From Candidatus Omnitrophota bacterium (GTDB taxonomy: Bacteria; Omnitrophota; Gorgyraeia; JAFGHF01), in the NCBI GenBank assembly GCA_020341815.1, contig CP070837.1, positions 1,300,575-1,364,574 on the forward strand: DNA of 64,000 nt. Reading direction: 5' to 3'. Made by a program: the position numbers and the translations under genes. Of the stretch, positions 8,306 through 42,980 are shown one piece after another. Below the pieces are notes generated by a model. The model saw nothing but the letters and a program-made list of their open reading frames with translations, was not told where the DNA came from and ran no database searches. Every line of letters starts with the position of its first letter. Position 1 is the stretch's first letter.

Positions 8306-9481
8306 ATGGATAAAAAGATTAAACTCCTTTTGGTTGTTTTGGGGTTGATTTCTCTGTTGGGGGCGGGTCTTTCGGCGTGGATTTATTTTTCCGCCCAGGA
8401 AGAAATTATCAGATACGAGGATAAGTATAGCGAATTAGAAAAGAATAATGCATATCTTCGCCAGGGATTGGATGTTGCCGAGAAGGAAAGCCGCCAGTGG
8501 CGGGAAAAGGCGGAGCTTGTAACTGCCACTCTCAATGAATTGAGCCAGAAGTTTAATCTCCTGCAGCAGCAGTATGTATCTTTGAATAAAGAGAAGGATT
8601 CGCTATTCGATGAAAATAAAAGCCTTCTTGAGCAATTGGAGAAAATGAAAGGATTTTATTCCAAAGTTCAGGAGGAAAGGTTAGAAATAATAGAAAAAGT
8701 AGAAGTAGATGCTTCGGATGAATTCTTATCTTCTCTCTTAAAGGAAAAGGCGGCCCTGCAGGTAGAAATAGAAAAGTTAAGAGGGCAGATTGAGAGCGTA
8801 AAGAAGCAAATACGGCCTTCGCAGAATGAATTTGTCAAACTGGAACTAGAAAAAGGCTCGGTGGAGAAAAAATTAAGCGATATGGAGCGTGCCTCAGGCC
8901 TCTTAAGCAGTGATCTTTTGCAGGAGAGAAAAAAGAGGAGTTCTTTAGAGGAGGAGTTAGTCAGAACCGAAGGCCGGCTTTACCGCATAACCCAGGAAAA
9001 AGATAAGCTCGCCGAGCAACTTACCAAGATGAAGCAGGCCCTGGAGAAGAGGCTTCTTGAGTTAAGCGATACGAAGAAGGTGTTGGAAAGCGCGGTCGAG
9101 GGGGCAAAGAAGGCGATGCAGAAGACAGATGCAGGTATCGGCTCCATTGAATTGTCGCCCATTGTGGTAAAGGCAGAGCCGCCGAAAAAAGAGGCGCAGG
9201 AAATTGCGCCGCCGGCGAAAGAACCGCCGAAAAAAGAGGTGCAAGAGAAGCACTTCACGATAGAAGGCCGCATTATTACGATTAACGACAAACATAAGTT
9301 TGTGGTAATTGATATAGGCCGGGATGCCGGCGTGGAAAAGAAAATGCCTTTTAGTGTCTATCGCCAGGATAAAGAAGTAGGAAAAATAGAAGTAATTGAG
9401 GCGCGCAAAAATATCGCTGCCTGCGATATTAAAGAGATGAAGGTCAAGAATTTCGAAATTAACGACAGCGTACGCAGATGA
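8306..9481 (+). CDS. Membrane-anchored coiled-coil protein with a PEPPKKE repeat and a C-terminal beta-rich domain.
   Basis: ATG at 8306 is preceded by the RBS AAAGGTGGGGGG. The product has an N-terminal TM helix, a long heptad-rich region, a 'PPKKEAQEIAPPAKEPPKKEVQEK' repeat and a C-terminal ~80-aa domain. Confidence 0.4.
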   Translation: MDKKIKLLLVVLGLISLLGAGLSAWIYFSAQEEIIRYEDKYSELEKNNAYLRQGLDVAEKESRQWREKAELVTATLNELSQKFNLLQQQYVSLNKEKDSLFDENKSLLEQLEKMKGFYSKVQEERLEIIEKVEVDASDEFLSSLLKEKAALQVEIEKLRGQIESVKKQIRPSQNEFVKLELEKGSVEKKLSDMERASGLLSSDLLQERKKRSSLEEELVRTEGRLYRITQEKDKLAEQLTKMKQALEKRLLELSDTKKVLESAVEGAKKAMQKTDAGIGSIELSPIVVKAEPPKKEAQEIAPPAKEPPKKEVQEKHFTIEGRIITINDKHKFVVIDIGRDAGVEKKMPFSVYRQDKEVGKIEVIEARKNIAACDIKEMKVKNFEINDSVRR

Positions 9482-32824: not shown

Positions 32825-35260
32825 ATGTTCAACCGCTTCACCGAACGGGCAAGAAAGGTGATTATTCTGGCCAAAGAAGAGGCCAAGCGTTTTAATCACG
32901 ACTATATCGGCACCGAGCACATCCTGCTGGGATTAATCCGCGAAGGCGAAGGTGTGGCCAGCGCGGTTTTACAAAATACAGGATTGAATCTGGATAAGAT
33001 AAGGCTGGAGATTGAAAAGCTTGTGCAGCCGGGGCCGACCACGGTTGTTTCCGGGGATATACCTTTTACCCCCCGGGCCAAACGGGTGGTGGAGTTATCA
33101 ATGGAAGAGGCCAGGCAGCTGGGGCATAACTATATCGGCACCGAACACCTGCTTCTGGGGCTTTTGCGCGAAGGCGAAGGCGTAGCCGCGCAGGTGCTCT
33201 TAGCCCTGGGTTTGGATTTAAATAAAGTGAGGACTGAGATAATGGAGCTTTTGGGCCAGGGGATACCCGGCGCTCAGCAGGAGGCAGGTCCCGCCGCAGC
33301 AAGGGCCAAGGGCAAGACCCCGGCTTTGGATGCCTTCGGACGAGATTTAACCGCCCTGGCCAGAGAGGCCAAGCTTGATCCGGTAATCGGCCGGAAAAAT
33401 GAGATTGAGCGGCTGGTTCAGATTTTAAGCCGGCGCACCAAAAACAACCCCGTGCTTTTGGGTGAGGCCGGCGTAGGCAAGACCGCTATCGTAGAGGGCC
33501 TGGCCCAGCAGATTGTCTCGGGAAATATCCCCGAGGTGCTCAAGGATAAACGCATTGTCATAATTGACTTGGCCTTGATGGTTGCCGGGACTAAGTACCG
33601 CGGGCAATTCGAAGAACGCATCAAGGCGGTAATGGACGAGATAAGAAGATCGGAAAACGTGGTAATGTTTATCGATGAGCTGCATACCTTAGTGGGCGCA
33701 GGAGGGGCGGAAGGGGCGATCGATGCCTCTAATATTCTAAAACCCGCTCTTTCCCGGGGAGAGATTCAGTGTATCGGCGCCACTACCATGGATGAATACC
33801 GCAAATATATCGAAAAAGACGCCGCCCTTGAGCGCAGATTCCAGACTATTATGGTGGATCCCCCGACGGTGGATGAGACAATACAGATATTAAAGGGCTT
33901 GAGAGACAAATACGAGGCCCATCACAAAGTCAAGTTTACCGACGAGGCTCTTGAGCAGGCGGTTAAGCTCTCCGATAGATATATCAGCGGCCGCTATTTG
34001 CCCGATAAGGCCGTTGACCTGATTGATGAGTCCGGGGCAAAGGCCAGGCTTTCAGCGCTTATGGCCCCTCCTGATTTGCAGGAGAAGGAGAAGAATATAG
34101 AGGAGCTGCATAAGGAAAAGCAGGCGGCGATAAAGAGTCAGGATTTTGAGAAGGCCGCCAAGTTCAGGGACGAGGAGCGCGAGGCTAAGGCCGAGCTGCA
34201 AAAACTAAAAGATACCTGGAACAAGAAAAAGGTAGAGGTAACACCCACCGTAACCGATGAAGATATTGCCCAGATAGTGTCCAAATGGACGGGTATTCCC
34301 ATCTCCAGACTGGAGGAGAAGGAGTCGGAGCGGCTTCTGAAGATGGAAGAGAACATACACAAAATGGTAGTCGGCCAGGATGAGGCTATTGCCGCTATTG
34401 CCCGCGCGGTAAGACGTTCCCGCGCCGGCATCAAAGACCCCCGCCGGCCTATCGGCTCTTTTGTGTTTTTGGGACCCACCGGCGTGGGAAAGACGCTACT
34501 GGCAAGAGCCCTGGCAGAGTTTATGTTCGGTAACGAGAATGCCCTGATTCAGCTGGATATGTCGGAGTATATGGAGAAGTTTAATGTCTCGCGTCTTGTG
34601 GGTGCGCCTCCGGGTTATGTGGGTTATGAAGAGGGAGGCCAGCTTACGGAGAAGGTAAGGCGCAGGCCTTATTCGGTGGTCCTGCTCGATGAAATCGAAA
34701 AGGCCCATCCGGATGTATTTAATATACTTCTTCAGGTCTTGGAAGACGGGCGGCTCACCGACAGCTTCGGCCGCAAAGTGGATTTTCGCAATACCATTTT
34801 GATTATGACCTCCAATATCGGCGCAGAGATACTCAAGAAGCAGGGCTCTTTGGGCTTCAAGTCGCAAAAAGAAGAGGTTACTTTTCAGGAGATGAAGAAG
34901 AAGTTATTGGATGAGGTGAGCCGAACCTTCAAACCGGAGTTCTTAAATCGTATCGACGATATAACCGTTTTTCACCCCTTAACAAAAGACGACCTCTATA
35001 AAATAATAGATATTGAGGTTGGGCACGTCCAGAAGAGGTTAAGCGAGCAGGACATTACGCTTGAGCTGACTAAAAGCGCCAAAGAGTTCCTCATCGATAA
35101 AGGATTTAATCCCGTATTCGGCGCCCGTCCCTTAAAACGGACCATCCAGAGGTATCTGGAAGATCCGCTTTCGGAGGAGATAATCAGCAAGAAATTTAAG
35201 AAATCCAGAAAGATAAAAGTATCTTGCGAAAAAGGAAAGAGTGAGCTTAGTTTTACTTAG
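32825..35260 (+). CDS. clpC: ATP-dependent Clp protease ATP-binding subunit ClpC.
   Basis: Tandem Clp_N repeats, two AAA+ modules, a UVR linker and a ClpB_D2-small domain. Confidence 0.85.
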
Positions 35261-39027: not shown

Positions 39028-40416
39028 ATGGCTAAAGTAAAGAGTATATTTACCTGTCAGCAATGCGGATATCAATCAGCAAAGTGGTTAGGCCGCTGCC
39101 CCGATTGCAATAACTGGAATAGCTTAACAGAAGAGACCCAAATTAGGGAAACCCGTCCCTCCTTGCGTCAATTCGCCAATCCCCAGCCGCCTCAGCTTCT
39201 TTCGGATGTTCAGGGTTCCGATGAGATAAGGCAGTCCACCAATATAGAAGAATTGGACAGAATTCTGGGGGGAGGGATAGTTTCGGGTTCGGTGGTTTTG
39301 GTGGGAGGTGAGCCCGGTATCGGCAAATCCACCCTTTTGCTTCAGGCCTGCCTCGCCGCTTGCAGGCGGGCCTGCCAAAAACTTGCCAGCGCTTCCAGCT
39401 CTATCCTTTATGTAAGCGCAGAGGAATCAATTCAGCAGACCAAGCTCAGGGCTTTACGACTGGGTGAGATACCCAAAGACCTTTATATAGTCAGCGAAAC
39501 AAACGTAGACTTAATTACCCAATACGTCAGAAAGCTATCTCCGGCTTTGGTGGTGATTGACTCTATCCAGGTGATGTATAACCCGGATCTTTCTTCCGGA
39601 GCCGGCAGCGTCAGCCAGGTGAGGGAGTGCTCCGGAGTTCTTACGGCGCTGGCCAAAGCAAGCAACATCCCTGTATTTTTAGTCGGACACGTAACCAAAG
39701 AGGGGTATCTTGCCGGCCCCCGCGTCTTGGAGCATATGGTTGATACGGTGCTCTATTTTGAGGGCCAGAGAGAAACTTCTTTCAGGATTTTAAGGGCGGT
39801 AAAAAACAGATTTGGTTCAACTAATGAAATCGGGGTTTTTCAGATGACCGGTTGCGGCCTGGCTCAGGTAAACAACCCTTCCCAGCTTTTGCTTGCCCAG
39901 CGGCCGAAACAGGCCGCGGGCTCGGTGGTAGTTCCCTGCATTGAAGGGACGCGTCCGCTTCTGGTGGAAATTCAGGCTTTGGTCAGCCGCTCGGGGCTGG
40001 TAATGCCCCGGCGCTGGTGCTCGGGGTTAGACTATAACCGGATTGCCCTTTTGATTGCGGTTTTGGAGAAGCGCGCGGGGCTGGGCCTGGCGAGTCAGGA
40101 TATTTTTGTTAATGTGGTCGGAGGCATCAAGGTCCAGGAGCCGGCCATAGACTTAGGCATTGCCGTGGCAGTTGCCTCCAGTCTGAAAGAGGCGCCTGTC
40201 GAGCAGCAAGACATTGTTCTGGGAGAGATAGGTTTGGGGGCGGAGGTGCGCGGGGTAACCCAGCCTGAGGTTAGAATAAAGGAGGCCCAGAGACTGGGCT
40301 TTAAGCGTTGCATTATTGCCAAGAATAATCTTAAGAGCCTCAAAATCAAAGGCTCCATTGAACTGATAGGTGTGGAAACGGTAAGCGAAGCCCTGGAGGC
40401 GGTTTTAAAAAAATGA
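39028..40416 (+). CDS. radA: DNA repair protein RadA/Sms.
   Basis: N-terminal C4 zinc finger, Walker A 'GGEPGIGKST' and a Lon-protease-like C-terminus. Confidence 0.85.
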   Translation: MAKVKSIFTCQQCGYQSAKWLGRCPDCNNWNSLTEETQIRETRPSLRQFANPQPPQLLSDVQGSDEIRQSTNIEELDRILGGGIVSGSVVLVGGEPGIGKSTLLLQACLAACRRACQKLASASSSILYVSAEESIQQTKLRALRLGEIPKDLYIVSETNVDLITQYVRKLSPALVVIDSIQVMYNPDLSSGAGSVSQVRECSGVLTALAKASNIPVFLVGHVTKEGYLAGPRVLEHMVDTVLYFEGQRETSFRILRAVKNRFGSTNEIGVFQMTGCGLAQVNNPSQLLLAQRPKQAAGSVVVPCIEGTRPLLVEIQALVSRSGLVMPRRWCSGLDYNRIALLIAVLEKRAGLGLASQDIFVNVVGGIKVQEPAIDLGIAVAVASSLKEAPVEQQDIVLGEIGLGAEVRGVTQPEVRIKEAQRLGFKRCIIAKNNLKSLKIKGSIELIGVETVSEALEAVLKK

Positions 40417-41381
40417 AGATGAAAAGGATTGGTTTATTGACCAGCGGCGGGGATTGCCCCGGGATGAATGCCTGTATCCGCAGTGTGGTGCGCACGGCCA
40501 TCTATAAGGGCCTGGAGGTCTACGGCATTTTTAAAGGTTATCAGGGCTTGATTGAGGGTCAGGTTAAGGCGCTCGATCGCCGCTCGGTTTCCAATATCTT
40601 GACTCACGGAGGCACAATGCTTAAGACCGCCCGCTCTCCGGAGTTTAAGACCGCCGCCGGCCAGAACAAGGCTAAGCGCGTAATTGAGCAAAACGGGCTT
40701 GAGGGCCTGGTGGTAATCGGAGGGGACGGTTCATTTCGCGGGGCGCACCGGCTCTGGCAGAGATGGAAGTTTCCGGTAATAGGGGTGCCGGCCACTATCG
40801 ATAATGATATCAACGGCACCGACGCAACTATCGGCGCGGACACCGCGGTAGATACCGCACTATACGCAATAGATAAGATAAGGGATACGGTTACTTCCTT
40901 AGAAAGAATATTTGTCATTGAGGTTATGGGTAGAGGCTCAGGCTATATTGCCCTGGAGGTCGGGCTTGCCGGTGGGGCCGAGGATATCATTATCCCCGAG
41001 AGGCGCTATAATATAGATAAGATGTGCGCCGATATCCGCACAGGCCACAAAAAAGGAAAAATCAGCTGGATAATCGTTGTGGCCGAGGGTGCAGCAAGCG
41101 CTGCCGATGTAGCCGCAAAGATTACCCGCAAGACGCATCTTGAGACCAGAGTCAGCGTCTTAGGGCACATCCAGCGGGGCGGTTCTCCTTCGGCGGATGA
41201 TCGCATCCTGGCTACGCATCTGGGGGCGGAGGCGGTAAAGTGTCTGATCAGGGGTGAGCGGGATAAAATGGTGGGCATGGTCAATAATCGCGTCAAAACG
41301 GTGGATTTAAGTTATGCCGTCAAAAAGAAGAAAATAAATACAGAGGTTTTGTATCGTTTAATCCGCATACTAGCACTGTAA
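40413..41381 (+). CDS. pfkA: ATP-dependent 6-phosphofructokinase.
   Basis: 'GLLTSGGDCPGMNA', 'GGDGS' and 'MGR' motifs. Confidence 0.85.
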   Translation: MKMKRIGLLTSGGDCPGMNACIRSVVRTAIYKGLEVYGIFKGYQGLIEGQVKALDRRSVSNILTHGGTMLKTARSPEFKTAAGQNKAKRVIEQNGLEGLVVIGGDGSFRGAHRLWQRWKFPVIGVPATIDNDINGTDATIGADTAVDTALYAIDKIRDTVTSLERIFVIEVMGRGSGYIALEVGLAGGAEDIIIPERRYNIDKMCADIRTGHKKGKISWIIVVAEGAASAADVAAKITRKTHLETRVSVLGHIQRGGSPSADDRILATHLGAEAVKCLIRGERDKMVGMVNNRVKTVDLSYAVKKKKINTEVLYRLIRILAL

Positions 41382-41507
41382 CACTGAGAACACTGAATTG
41401 TTAACACTGAGAACACTGAAAGAAAAACTTCAGTGGTTTCAGTGGTTTCAGTGACAAAAGAAAAACTTCAGTGGTTTCAGTGGTTATTTTTCAGTGGTTT
41501 CAGTGAC
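41380..41507 (+). repeat. Complex direct/inverted repeat array: 2x AACACTGAGAACACTGAA, then 9-bp periodic TTCAGTGGT units.
   Basis: Repeats at 41380-97 and 41403-20 (A units), then 41429-55 and 41467-507 (B units). B is an imperfect reverse complement of A, and a ~33-bp tandem duplication lies within. The RBS AAAGGAGGT follows directly. Confidence 0.65.
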
Positions 41508-41520
41508 AAAAGGAGGTAAA

Positions 41521-42921
41521 ATGCTTTACAGAGACGTCAAGGATTTGCTTGAGAAAACCAGTAGTGCAATCAGGGTTTCAAAAGAGGGTGTAACAATAGA
41601 AGATAAGGCAAGACTTAAAGCCAAGGTTATAGACGAGCTGGTATATAATCTTTGTCTTAATGAAAATCAGGCGGTAAAGGACGCCTCGCGCTGGATTATC
41701 TGGGGGGCGGCCGCTGAACTCGGGATTTATCCCTCTTCTATCCAGGGGCTTTATGAGGCAAAGGGAAAGGACAAATACAGCCAGATTACTGTACCTGCGG
41801 TGAATATAAGAGGCCTGACATATGATGTGGCCCGCGCCTTGATCAGGACGGCAATGAAATTAAAATCGTTAAATTTTGTTTTTGAGATTGCCCGCTCGGA
41901 GATAGGTTATACCTTTCAGCGCCCGGCGGAATATGCGGCAATTTGCCTGGGGGCGGCAATTAAGGAGGGTTTTTCCGGTCCTTTATTTATTCTGGGGGAT
42001 CATTTCCAGCTTAAGGCCAAAAATTATGCTGCTGATGCCGCCAAAGAAATCGACTCGGCAAAGGAGCTTATCCGCGAGGCCATTGAGGGGGGATTCTATA
42101 ATATCGATATCGACAGCTCGACGCTGGTGGATTTAGATAAGAAGACGCTGAATGAACAGCAGTGGAATAACTACGATGTAACGGCAAAGTTGACCTCCTT
42201 TATCCGGGAGATTCAGCCTAAGGATATCACGGTTTCGGTAGGCGGAGAGATAGGCGAGGTCGGAGGAAAGAATACCACGCCTGAAGAGTTCCGGGCGTTT
42301 ATGGAGGGATACAAAAAAGAGCTGAATAAAAACGGCAAAGGCTCCAAAGGAATTAGTAAAATCAGCATCCAGACCGGGACCGCCCATGGGGGCGTGGTTC
42401 TGCCCGACGGAAGTATCGCCAAGGTAAGCCTGGATTTTGATGTCTTAAGGAAAGTCTCCGAAATTGCCCGCCATGAATACGGACTGGCCGGGACGGTGCA
42501 GCACGGGGCTTCAACCCTTCCGGATGATGCCTTCCATCACTTTCCCCAGACCGAGACTGCTGAGGTGCACCTGGCTACAGGCTTTCAGAACATTGTTTAT
42601 GAAAGCAGGTATTTCCCCCGGGATTTAAGAGATAAGATTTATGCCTGGCTTAAAGAAAATTGCAGTGCCGACAGAAAAGAAGGGATGAGTGATGAGCAGT
42701 TTATATACAAGACCCGCAAAAAGGGTTTTGGCCCCTTCAAGAAAGAGCTGATGAGCCTGCCGGAAGATGTGCGAAATAATATCGGCAAGGAATTGGAGGA
42801 AAAATTCACTTTTATTTTCCAGAAGCTCAATGCCGCCGATACCGAGGCCCTGACCAGGCGATACGTAAAGCCTGTTACTATTAAGAAGGCCTGCCCCGAA
42901 GGGTTAATCAAGGCCTTATAA
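41521..42921 (+). CDS. Class II aldolase-family protein (probable fructose-bisphosphate aldolase, long form).
   Basis: It lies downstream of pfkA. Segments 'VPAVNIRGL', 'GDHFQ' and 'QHGAST' are compatible with class II FBP aldolase cores. Assignment is tentative. Confidence 0.45.
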   Translation: MLYRDVKDLLEKTSSAIRVSKEGVTIEDKARLKAKVIDELVYNLCLNENQAVKDASRWIIWGAAAELGIYPSSIQGLYEAKGKDKYSQITVPAVNIRGLTYDVARALIRTAMKLKSLNFVFEIARSEIGYTFQRPAEYAAICLGAAIKEGFSGPLFILGDHFQLKAKNYAADAAKEIDSAKELIREAIEGGFYNIDIDSSTLVDLDKKTLNEQQWNNYDVTAKLTSFIREIQPKDITVSVGGEIGEVGGKNTTPEEFRAFMEGYKKELNKNGKGSKGISKISIQTGTAHGGVVLPDGSIAKVSLDFDVLRKVSEIARHEYGLAGTVQHGASTLPDDAFHHFPQTETAEVHLATGFQNIVYESRYFPRDLRDKIYAWLKENCSADRKEGMSDEQFIYKTRKKGFGPFKKELMSLPEDVRNNIGKELEEKFTFIFQKLNAADTEALTRRYVKPVTIKKACPEGLIKAL

Positions 42922-42933
42922 AAATAAAAAAAA

Positions 42934-42980
42934 GCCCCCCCGATGCTTTTTATAAAAAACAATCGGGGGGTTTTTATTTT
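42934..42980. terminator. Bidirectional intrinsic terminator between the convergent aldolase-like gene and lptG.
   Basis: A 9-bp GC stem (CCCCCCGAT…ATCGGGGGG) flanked by an A-run on one side and a T-run on the other. Confidence 0.65.

Follow-up and report, generated by a model that had tools for sequence, protein, structure and literature searches.

Repetitive extragenic palindromic (REP) elements, such as that between malE and malF, serve as intercistronic 3'-exonuclease barriers or as double-strand RNase targets, and nucleoid or topoisomerase factors are reported to bind both REPs and bacterial interspersed mosaic elements (BIMEs). Liang, Rudd and Deutscher reportedly observed in 2015 that REPs within 15 nt of stop codons in Escherichia coli stall ribosomes and lower expression of the upstream gene, and the short tandemly repeated repetitive (STRR) heptamers of cyanobacteria are said to go back to Mazel et al. 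in 1990. A REP survey covering the Planctomycetes-Verrucomicrobia-Chlamydiae (PVC) bacteria contains only GTAG- and CGTC-tagged palindromes (PMC3733652), and the REPINs are related REP-type elements used here for comparison (PMC3116915). Modular repeats resembling miniature inverted-repeat transposable elements (MITEs), including pneumococcal BOX, Neisseria Correia, and the Rickettsia palindromic element (RPE), are co-transcribed with their neighbors and can alter mRNA stability or processing (PMC3184786). The repeat array considered here lies between pfkA and the class II aldolase gene fba in a 64-kb stretch of Candidatus Omnitrophota DNA (contig CP070837.1, positions 1,300,575 to 1,364,574; hereafter the window). 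It is best filed with elements of the REP/BIME/MITE kind, among which it stands out for being built of 9-nt modules and for the range of phyla, possibly domains, over which such hairpins occur, and we think it probable that a small palindromic repeat of a dispersed type inserted here in this lineage alone and was then amplified locally.

The array occupies 128 nt (41380-41507) and contains, as the original prediction had it, 11 CAGTG/CACTG pentamers, which on recounting are 4 CACTG and 7 CAGTG; based on the density of these cores elsewhere in the window (45 in 63.9 kb), 0.09 would be expected. A twelfth CACTG, which is the outermost core, lies at 41374-41378 within the final pfkA codons GCA CTG TAA. 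Every element previously described for this interval is present, including the 9-bp periodicity. The 5' to 3' order is A1 (TAACACTGAGAACACTGAA), TTGT, A2, AGAAAAAC, B1, AAAAGAAAAAC, B2, TATTT, B3, and AAAAGGAGGTAAAATG, with the following repeat parts:

41379-41397, plus strand: A1 block, TAACACTGAGAACACTGAA, consisting of TAA (the pfkA stop) and two CACTGA modules
41402-41420, plus strand: A2 block, identical to A1 (100%), with the TAA copied as well; 5' arm of the core hairpin
41421-41428, plus strand: A-rich loop AGAAAAAC between A2 and B1 in the core hairpin, matching that of the Elusimicrobiota copy L211
41429-41455, plus strand: B1 block, three TCAGTG modules, TTCAGTGGT TTCAGTGGT TTCAGTGAC; 3' arm of the core hairpin
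41456-41484, plus strand: duplicated spacer and B2 block, of which B2 (41467-41484) is TTCAGTGGT TTCAGTGGT, two TCAGTG modules
41490-41507, plus strand: B3 block, TTCAGTGGT TTCAGTGAC, two TCAGTG modules

Units within the B blocks occur at an exact 9-nt period (for B1, Tandem Repeats Finder gives period 9 with a 100% match), and, as had been claimed, the B set is an imperfect reverse complement of the A set, with 39-nt arms that are 77% complementary. A repeat finder detected three perfect internal duplications in the array, of 19, 29, and 24 nt. The first is that of A1 and A2 and includes the copied pfkA TAA; the second equates 41457-41485 with 41419-41447, and the third 41489-41512 with 41437-41460. 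The original prediction saw one ~33-bp block duplicated again, and the duplication is real, but it more precisely comprises the two perfect ones of 29 and 24 nt. Because the duplicates are perfectly identical, they likely result from recent slippage or unequal exchange among modules. The exact unit TTCAGTGGT is absent elsewhere in the 64-kb window, and a relaxed scan for CACNGA/TCNGTG clusters returned the array as its sole match (0.1 clusters per shuffle); other arrays of the unit, which the original prediction had raised, come down to this one locus within the window. The module period equals three codons, and the A modules add two in-frame TGA codons after the pfkA TAA (TAA CAC TGA GAA CAC TGA, 41379-41396); any CACTGA arm gives in-frame-spaced stops in one frame, whichever strand is read.

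The same architecture recurs outside the window. We defined a family of module hairpins (5'-CACTGA...TCAGTG-3') by at least two CACTGA-type hexamers with an 8-10-nt period, followed after no more than ~35 nt by at least two TCAGTG hexamers with the same period, a pattern into which window positions 41382-41453 fit, the array as a whole having 4 A and 7 B modules with period 9 within blocks. Metagenome contigs were searched with the generic pattern CACTGA-N3-CACTGA-N(3-33)-TCAGTG-N3-TCAGTG (24 fixed bases, 31 gap lengths), for which about 0.1-1 match would be expected by chance in 10^12-10^13 bases, and at least 120 loci were found; there were 0 matches in 2.9 million viral contigs. Among the matches listed, the contigs range in GC from 0.28 to 0.73, arms consist of 2-6 units with a period of 9±1 nt, ~60% of the hairpins carry extra same-core modules beyond the pattern (up to 6 per arm), and the spacings that the pattern did not force are 8 nt (n=28), 9 nt (n=62), or 10 nt (n=47). 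The module is laid out as CACTGA plus 3 nt in the 5' arm and 3 nt plus TCAGTG in the 3' arm, and it is better written CACNGA+3, because the same loci also contain similarly built hairpins whose cores are CACAGA, CACCGA, CACGAA, CGCAGA, and ACAGGA.

These hairpins are widespread, dispersed, and not tied to particular genes. Among the matches listed, the 143 ORFs (open reading frames) adjoining them match 145 Pfam families, the commonest of which, sulfatase, appears four times; ~86% of the classifiable hairpins are intergenic, and no recurrent transposase was found among the 143 flanking ORFs. With ORFs filtered by GC content at third codon positions, 47 hairpins are in co-directional, 17 in convergent, and 8 in divergent contexts, and 12 lie inside called ORFs; as judged from these sequences, the family leans to gene 3' ends, like REP elements. 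Sense and antisense stability of the hairpins between co-directional genes show no bias (16 vs. 13; G-U pairs 44 vs. 41), and therefore there is no sign of selection on an oriented RNA.

What is conserved in the family is the hexamer and its inverted periodic arrangement, rather than full stem pairing. With cores fixed and the rest shuffled, only 36% of the family hairpins fold below z -2, and z is +1.0 for the window copy. In an arrangement-blind 18-mer scan, the polarity 5'-CACTGA...TCAGTG-3' was strongly preferred over the reverse among the matches listed. That cores rather than pairing are conserved would be better explained if the array acted as DNA, its 9-bp modules being head-to-head sites for a multimerizing DNA-binding protein, such as a transposase or recombinase at element ends, a ribbon-helix-helix repressor of the omega/MetJ/ParR kind polymerizing on short tandem sites, or a nucleoid/topoisomerase factor. 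The lack of strand bias, the polarity, and the retention of the cores across the whole GC range would also fit such a role. We consider it quite unlikely nonetheless, as neither a neighbor gene nor a transposase recurs beside the hairpins, there is no promoter in or beside the window array for a repressor to control, the 9-bp spacing puts successive sites on different faces of B-DNA, and no candidate protein was identified.

The family is apparently undescribed. Rfam 15 returned for the window only eukaryotic miRNA-precursor hairpins that scored below threshold (18 bits, where the gathering score is 95) and no match for 15 family loci, and the searchable literature contained no match for family sequences and nothing relevant on repeats in Verrucomicrobia, Akkermansia, or Omnitrophica. 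A plasmid BLAST search found only coding repeats of IncI1 trbA. A scan of a genome collection with the 18-mer TTCAGTGGTTTCAGTGGT likewise gave mostly coding repeats among the matches listed (NusG GPFSGFSG, DnaJ, and T/E-rich proteins), together with CACTG-arm/CAGTG-arm hairpins in Luteolibacter, Akkermansiaceae, and two further metagenome-assembled genomes (MAGs). An autonomous element lying between two identical hairpins on contig L173 was also considered and ruled out, the interval being a 3.77-kb tandem segmental duplication.

Several carriers could be assigned to a lineage. Contig L211 is from Elusimicrobiota, its nth product (endonuclease III) being 87-90% identical to Elusimicrobia MAG proteins, and its hairpin is identical to window 41402-41453 at 47 of 51 positions, including the A-rich loop and the third B module; at the positions left free in the search pattern, 23 of 27 match. 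In Elusimicrobia relatives with an nth product 88% identical, the 3' end of nth has a different, CACAGA-type hairpin or none. The L211 intergenic regions by nth and tRNA-Met (159-250 and 1000-1225) contain many 9-nt modules of the forms ACCACAGAG, AACACGGAG, GACCACGAA / TTCGTGGTT, and CTCTGTGAC, which indicates that several core variants coexist in one genome.

In a Luteolibacter MAG (JBILFE01), at least 12 loci (contigs) have an A arm, CACTGAGAACACTGA (15 nt), identical to that of the window, and they share even the two positions at which the window's A arm breaks complementarity with its B arm. In this genome the hairpin is part of a composite repeat of at least 12 copies, found at L039, L044, L057, L070, L087, L095, L112, L122, and others, in which the CACTGA hairpin is joined to a ~110-nt arm (..AAAAATCGTCATCCACAATCCCC-A7-CCTTAGCTTGACCGCACCTTCGGGGAATTTAACTTGCTCGCC..CTGAGTTC) in either orientation; the arm includes a promoter-like TTGACC...TAACTT stretch.

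Other members are found on contigs that encode archaeal PriL, PriS, and GINS (L052 and L117/L033, the latter titled 'bacterium'). In both L052 and L117, a CACTGA hairpin follows the priL stop codon by 13-17 nt, with 2+3 vs. 3+3 modules. Several copies also occur on the archaeal and Elusimicrobia contigs, and the archaeal contigs contain more hairpins, with CACAGA, CACCGA, and CGCAGA cores, between co-directional neighboring (replication) genes. The archaeal module hairpins are located as follows:

L052, 797-938 and 3023-3073: archaeal module hairpins
L117, 2791-2870 and 6865-6925: archaeal module hairpins
L033, 6406-6479: archaeal module hairpin

Judging from these contigs, the family appears to span at least Omnitrophota, Elusimicrobiota, Verrucomicrobiota, and an archaeal lineage, although the archaeal hairpins may be convergent. 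Its hairpins also appear to turn over fast, as the nth 3' ends and the module counts beside priL differ.

Like the REPs and BIMEs of Proteobacteria (e.g., E. coli malE-malF), the module hairpins are small, dispersed intergenic palindromes that are not gene-specific, often occur at gene 3' ends or between cistrons, are likely co-transcribed, and turn over rapidly between relatives, and the window array resembles the alternating-orientation unit clusters of BIMEs in its A1 A2 B1 B2 B3 arrangement. They differ in that each arm of the array is a tandem series of 9-nt modules, in which the hexamer is conserved and the triplets vary, whereas a REP is a single G+C-rich stem, and in that the module family spans several bacterial phyla and archaea. 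The GTAG/CGTC tetranucleotide is absent from 41379-41511, and the stems of the array are A/T-rich and modular. No gene for a REP-associated tyrosine transposase (RAYT) was identified, in that no transposase family recurs beside family members, the window genes not having been screened singly.

The cyanobacterial STRRs are likewise very short tandem intergenic units that occur in both orientations, but their period is 7 rather than 9 nt, they share no sequence with the modules and belong to other taxa, and only here are two inverted arrays forming a hairpin obligatory. The modular MITE-like repeats (BOX, Correia, and RPE) are similarly small and structured, with a variable number of internal units; in contrast, no distinct terminal inverted repeats, target-site duplication, or cognate insertion sequence (IS) was found for the module hairpins, which are much shorter (50-130 nt). 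Viewed as a MITE, the whole array is a palindrome, with no flanking duplication (TGTAA ... AAAAGG) and with no IS partner beside family members. A palindrome placed just after a stop codon and usable from either strand is also reminiscent of Rho-independent terminators and of inverted pairs of DNA uptake sequences, but the array has neither a G+C-rich stem nor a U tract, and the genome's own terminator after fba is canonical. DNA uptake sequences were ruled out, as the unit is not enriched in the window outside the array, and integron attC sites were ruled out on the basis of the housekeeping neighbors and because attC sites lack 9-nt modules. The array is also not a CRISPR, as had been concluded earlier, since its units are 9 nt long in both orientations and there are no unique spacers. 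A resemblance to K-turns, bulge-helix-bulge (BHB) motifs, or tRNA D-arms/T-arms was considered and was supported by no test.

Eight related Omnitrophota lineages, whose aldolases are 72-78% identical to that of the window, share the gene order mlaE-ABC-mlaD-radA-pfkA-fba, convergent with lptG and lptF. In none of the eight are CACNGA modules present, either in the pfkA-fba spacer or in the ~100 kb around it. The spacers are as follows:

L252, 15 nt: pfkA-fba spacer, unstructured
L256, 22 nt: pfkA-fba spacer, unstructured
L002-4, 26 nt: pfkA-fba spacer, unstructured
L001, 31 nt: pfkA-fba spacer, unstructured
L253 (7958-8031), 74 nt: pfkA-fba spacer with an unrelated perfect 16-bp hairpin, AATTCGGGACAGGTCC/GGACCTGTCCCGAATT, z -7.3
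L251 (2388-2500), 113 nt: pfkA-fba spacer with weak stems, z -0.8
L005 (2592-3000), 409 nt: pfkA-fba spacer with an unrelated ~200-nt palindrome and a 26-nt inverted repeat, z -6.8

The spacers of the relatives contain an equivalent A-rich/GGAG ribosome-binding sequence. Because neither these spacers nor their surroundings contain CACNGA modules, the array is derived and lineage-specific, and from the comparison we infer an insertion that separated the pfkA stop codon from an ancestral A-rich/GGAGG ribosome-binding region. A closer relative was not found: no aldolase more than 78% identical is present in a collection of 5.8 billion protein clusters, where the 90%-identity cluster of this aldolase has one member, and a window-specific 23-mer had no match in metagenome contigs. 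The original prediction suggested that the array could be a binding platform for a regulatory protein or sRNA, or a processing or stability element setting differential expression of pfkA and the aldolase gene. Its absence from all eight lineages with the same operon argues against such a gene-specific device, as does the finding that other phyla and archaea have the same module hairpins next to genes of unrelated kinds.

In RNA form, the junction is predicted to fold into a long interrupted hairpin with a minimum free energy of -50 kcal/mol (z -3.45; the spacer alone, -44.4 kcal/mol, z -3.94), consistent with the earlier suggestion that the transcript can form a long, bulged hairpin ending just before the fba ribosome-binding site. 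In the Boltzmann ensemble, A2 pairs mainly with B1 (11.2 expected pairs) and A1 mainly with B2 (9.3) or alternatively with B3 (3.8), and the surplus B modules are predicted to be partly unpaired. The predicted unpaired probability of the fba Shine-Dalgarno (SD) sequence is 0.45 with the array vs. 0.41 in an array-deleted construct; SD accessibility is therefore unchanged, and the insertion would respect initiation of fba translation.

This folding potential, with a hairpin that begins at a stop codon and ends before an accessible SD, might suggest an intercistronic RNA structure that is kept by selection because it sets the pfkA:fba expression ratio, whether by shielding the pfkA segment against 3'-exonucleases, by being cleaved by an RNase, or by stalling ribosomes at the pfkA stop. 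The unrelated hairpins at the same junction in L253 (z -7.3), L005 (z -6.8), and more weakly L251 are consistent with such selection, and archaeal members of the family likewise lie between co-directional genes of one cluster. However, a hairpin here is dispensable, since the spacer is short (15-31 nt) and unstructured in four of the eight lineages; the family shows no sense-strand stability bias (16 vs. 13; G-U 44 vs. 41); the recent perfect duplications and unbalanced arms suggest instability rather than a tuned structure; and predicted SD accessibility is unaffected. We therefore think it unlikely that the array is a selected hairpin of this type. The accumulation of different palindromes at the pfkA-fba junction, repeatedly in this group, could mean either that it is a hotspot for palindrome insertion or that it is under selection for a hairpin.

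The insertion of a dispersed palindrome followed by local amplification, which we prefer, can be envisaged as follows. The ancestral copy was probably a symmetric 3+3 hairpin like that of L211, GCACTG-TAA-CACTGAGAACACTGAA / loop AGAAAAAC / two copies of TTCAGTGGT and TTCAGTGAC, which would have abutted the pfkA stop codon after arriving at the pfkA end by insertion or through microhomology. Slipped or unequal recombination among modules would then have generated the 19-, 29-, and 24-nt duplications, leaving an unbalanced BIME-like cluster of 4(+1) A and 7 B modules. Its RNA would fold mainly as A2:B1 nested in A1:B2 or A1:B3, with the fba SD left free. Placed between cistrons like a REP, the hairpin would, if active, most likely block 3'-exonucleases, be cut by a double-strand RNase, or both, so that the mRNA levels of pfkA and fba could become uncoupled, and ribosomes terminating at pfkA would need to melt A1, since the structure begins at the stop codon. 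The analogy with REP elements makes such a generic role in RNA processing or stability plausible, and the unrelated hairpins present at the same junction in three to four of the eight related lineages add slightly to it. The element need not be adaptive, and it is not a dedicated regulator of glycolysis.

Several observations weigh against this account of insertion and amplification. The array is a single copy in the 64 kb examined of a 1.55-Mb genome, and because no mobilizing gene, target-site duplication, or terminal tag was found, the term "inserted" is drawn from presence and absence. The outermost module consists of native C-terminal pfkA codons, such that the array could instead have been seeded locally. 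The strong unrelated hairpins at the same junction in three to four of the eight lineages could reflect selection rather than neutral insertion. Moreover, the family was gathered with a pattern derived from the window, and its gene contexts come from crude ORF calls.

The array could also be the product of local simple-sequence slippage with no relation to outside elements, or a mis-assembled repeat. The perfect internal duplications, the CACTG supplied by pfkA, the single copy in 64 kb, and the lack of a second strain (one member in the aldolase 90% cluster and no 23-mer in metagenomes) are all in line with this. It is difficult to reconcile with the 47/51 identity to the Elusimicrobiota hairpin, which extends to the loop type and third module, with the identical A arm in Luteolibacter, and with the at least 120 hairpins of the same architecture elsewhere, and the array measures only 128 nt on a 1.55-Mb contig; we regard local slippage or misassembly as highly improbable. 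The original prediction had allowed that the repeats might prove to be noise with no positional conservation. Positional conservation is indeed absent, and the gene-specific reading fails with it, but the repeats are not simple-sequence noise.

A further possibility, which we put forward only tentatively and think rather unlikely, is that the modules are recognition units for machinery common to distant bacteria (Omnitrophota, Elusimicrobiota, and Verrucomicrobiota) and archaea, such as a mobilizing enzyme (compare RAYT on REPs) or a factor binding to hairpins or to the 3' ends of genes. The array would in that case be a single representative of a new class of modular palindromic elements found across domains, and horizontal spread would account for how nearly identical the Omnitrophota and Elusimicrobiota copies are.

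The array is flanked by the genes and signals listed below:

40413-41381, plus strand: pfkA, ATP-phosphofructokinase, 322 aa, based on the ORF, Pfam PF00365 (E 4.5e-111), and synteny in relatives
41508-41523, plus strand: native fba ribosome-binding region AAAAGGAGGTAAAATG, with the SD at 41512-41516 (GGAGG) and the ATG at 41521, outside the hairpin
41521-42921, plus strand: fba, class II fructose-bisphosphate aldolase, 466 aa, based on the ORF and on homology and Pfam searches
42926-42979, bidirectional: intrinsic terminator AAAAAAAAGCCCCCCCGATG...CAATCGGGGGGTTTTTATTT, a G/C-rich stem with an A tract on one side and a T tract on the other

The pfkA start overlaps the radA stop, and the array ends 4 nt upstream of the GGAGG (41512-41516). 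The fba product is a 100% match to UCB56828.1, a Candidatus Omnitrophota MAG protein; this match came from homology and cluster searches, whereas exact-protein look-ups of the pfkA and fba products returned no entry. A mechanical ORF list starts this gene at GTG 41494 (41494-42921), which is an artefact of the repeat; the real start is ATG 41521, based on the GGAGG 5 nt upstream and the agreement with all homologues. The terminator at 42926-42979 is canonical, sits between the convergent fba and lptG, and marks the end of the operon; a simple terminator scan passed over it because its loop is long. A consensus scan of the coding strand found neither a sigma-70-like promoter nor a terminator-like site in the array. 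As the array lies inside the mlaD-radA-pfkA-fba unit, which ends at the terminator after fba, it is most likely transcribed within the operon, and it is not a terminator of the type this organism uses.

Some other repeats were seen. Three Prevotellaceae loci (L024 3461-3493, L073 1578-1610, and L093 137-169) contain 9-nt units with a palindromic ACTAGT core (TTTCCTAGTGAAACTAGTTGCACTAGTCATACTAGTTAAACTAGTTTTGACTAGAAA), a different repeat that is conserved in three genomes, and L051 4461-5055 (Bacillus sp. FJAT-27264) consists of more than 60 perfect tandem copies of TTCAGTGGT. The window itself contains a 62-nt direct-repeat pair that is 85% identical (1518-1579 / 1776-1837), an A/G-rich array with a 15-nt period (9175-9246), and an 84-nt direct-repeat pair that is 75% identical (32876-32959 / 33104-33187), none of which is similar to the array.

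For this locus, the finding removes the account of a glycolytic riboregulator and puts in its place an intercistronic palindromic repeat of a kind able to change the stability of operon mRNA. The family itself, hairpins built of 9-nt modules around a CACTGA-type hexamer, is met repeatedly at the ends of genes, both in several bacterial phyla and on primase-encoding archaeal contigs. If these share one mechanism, be it mobilization, 3'-end formation, or protein binding, the REP/RAYT type of paradigm would extend to poorly known phyla and possibly across domains, and the module would serve as a tag with which to search metagenomes for elements of this kind.

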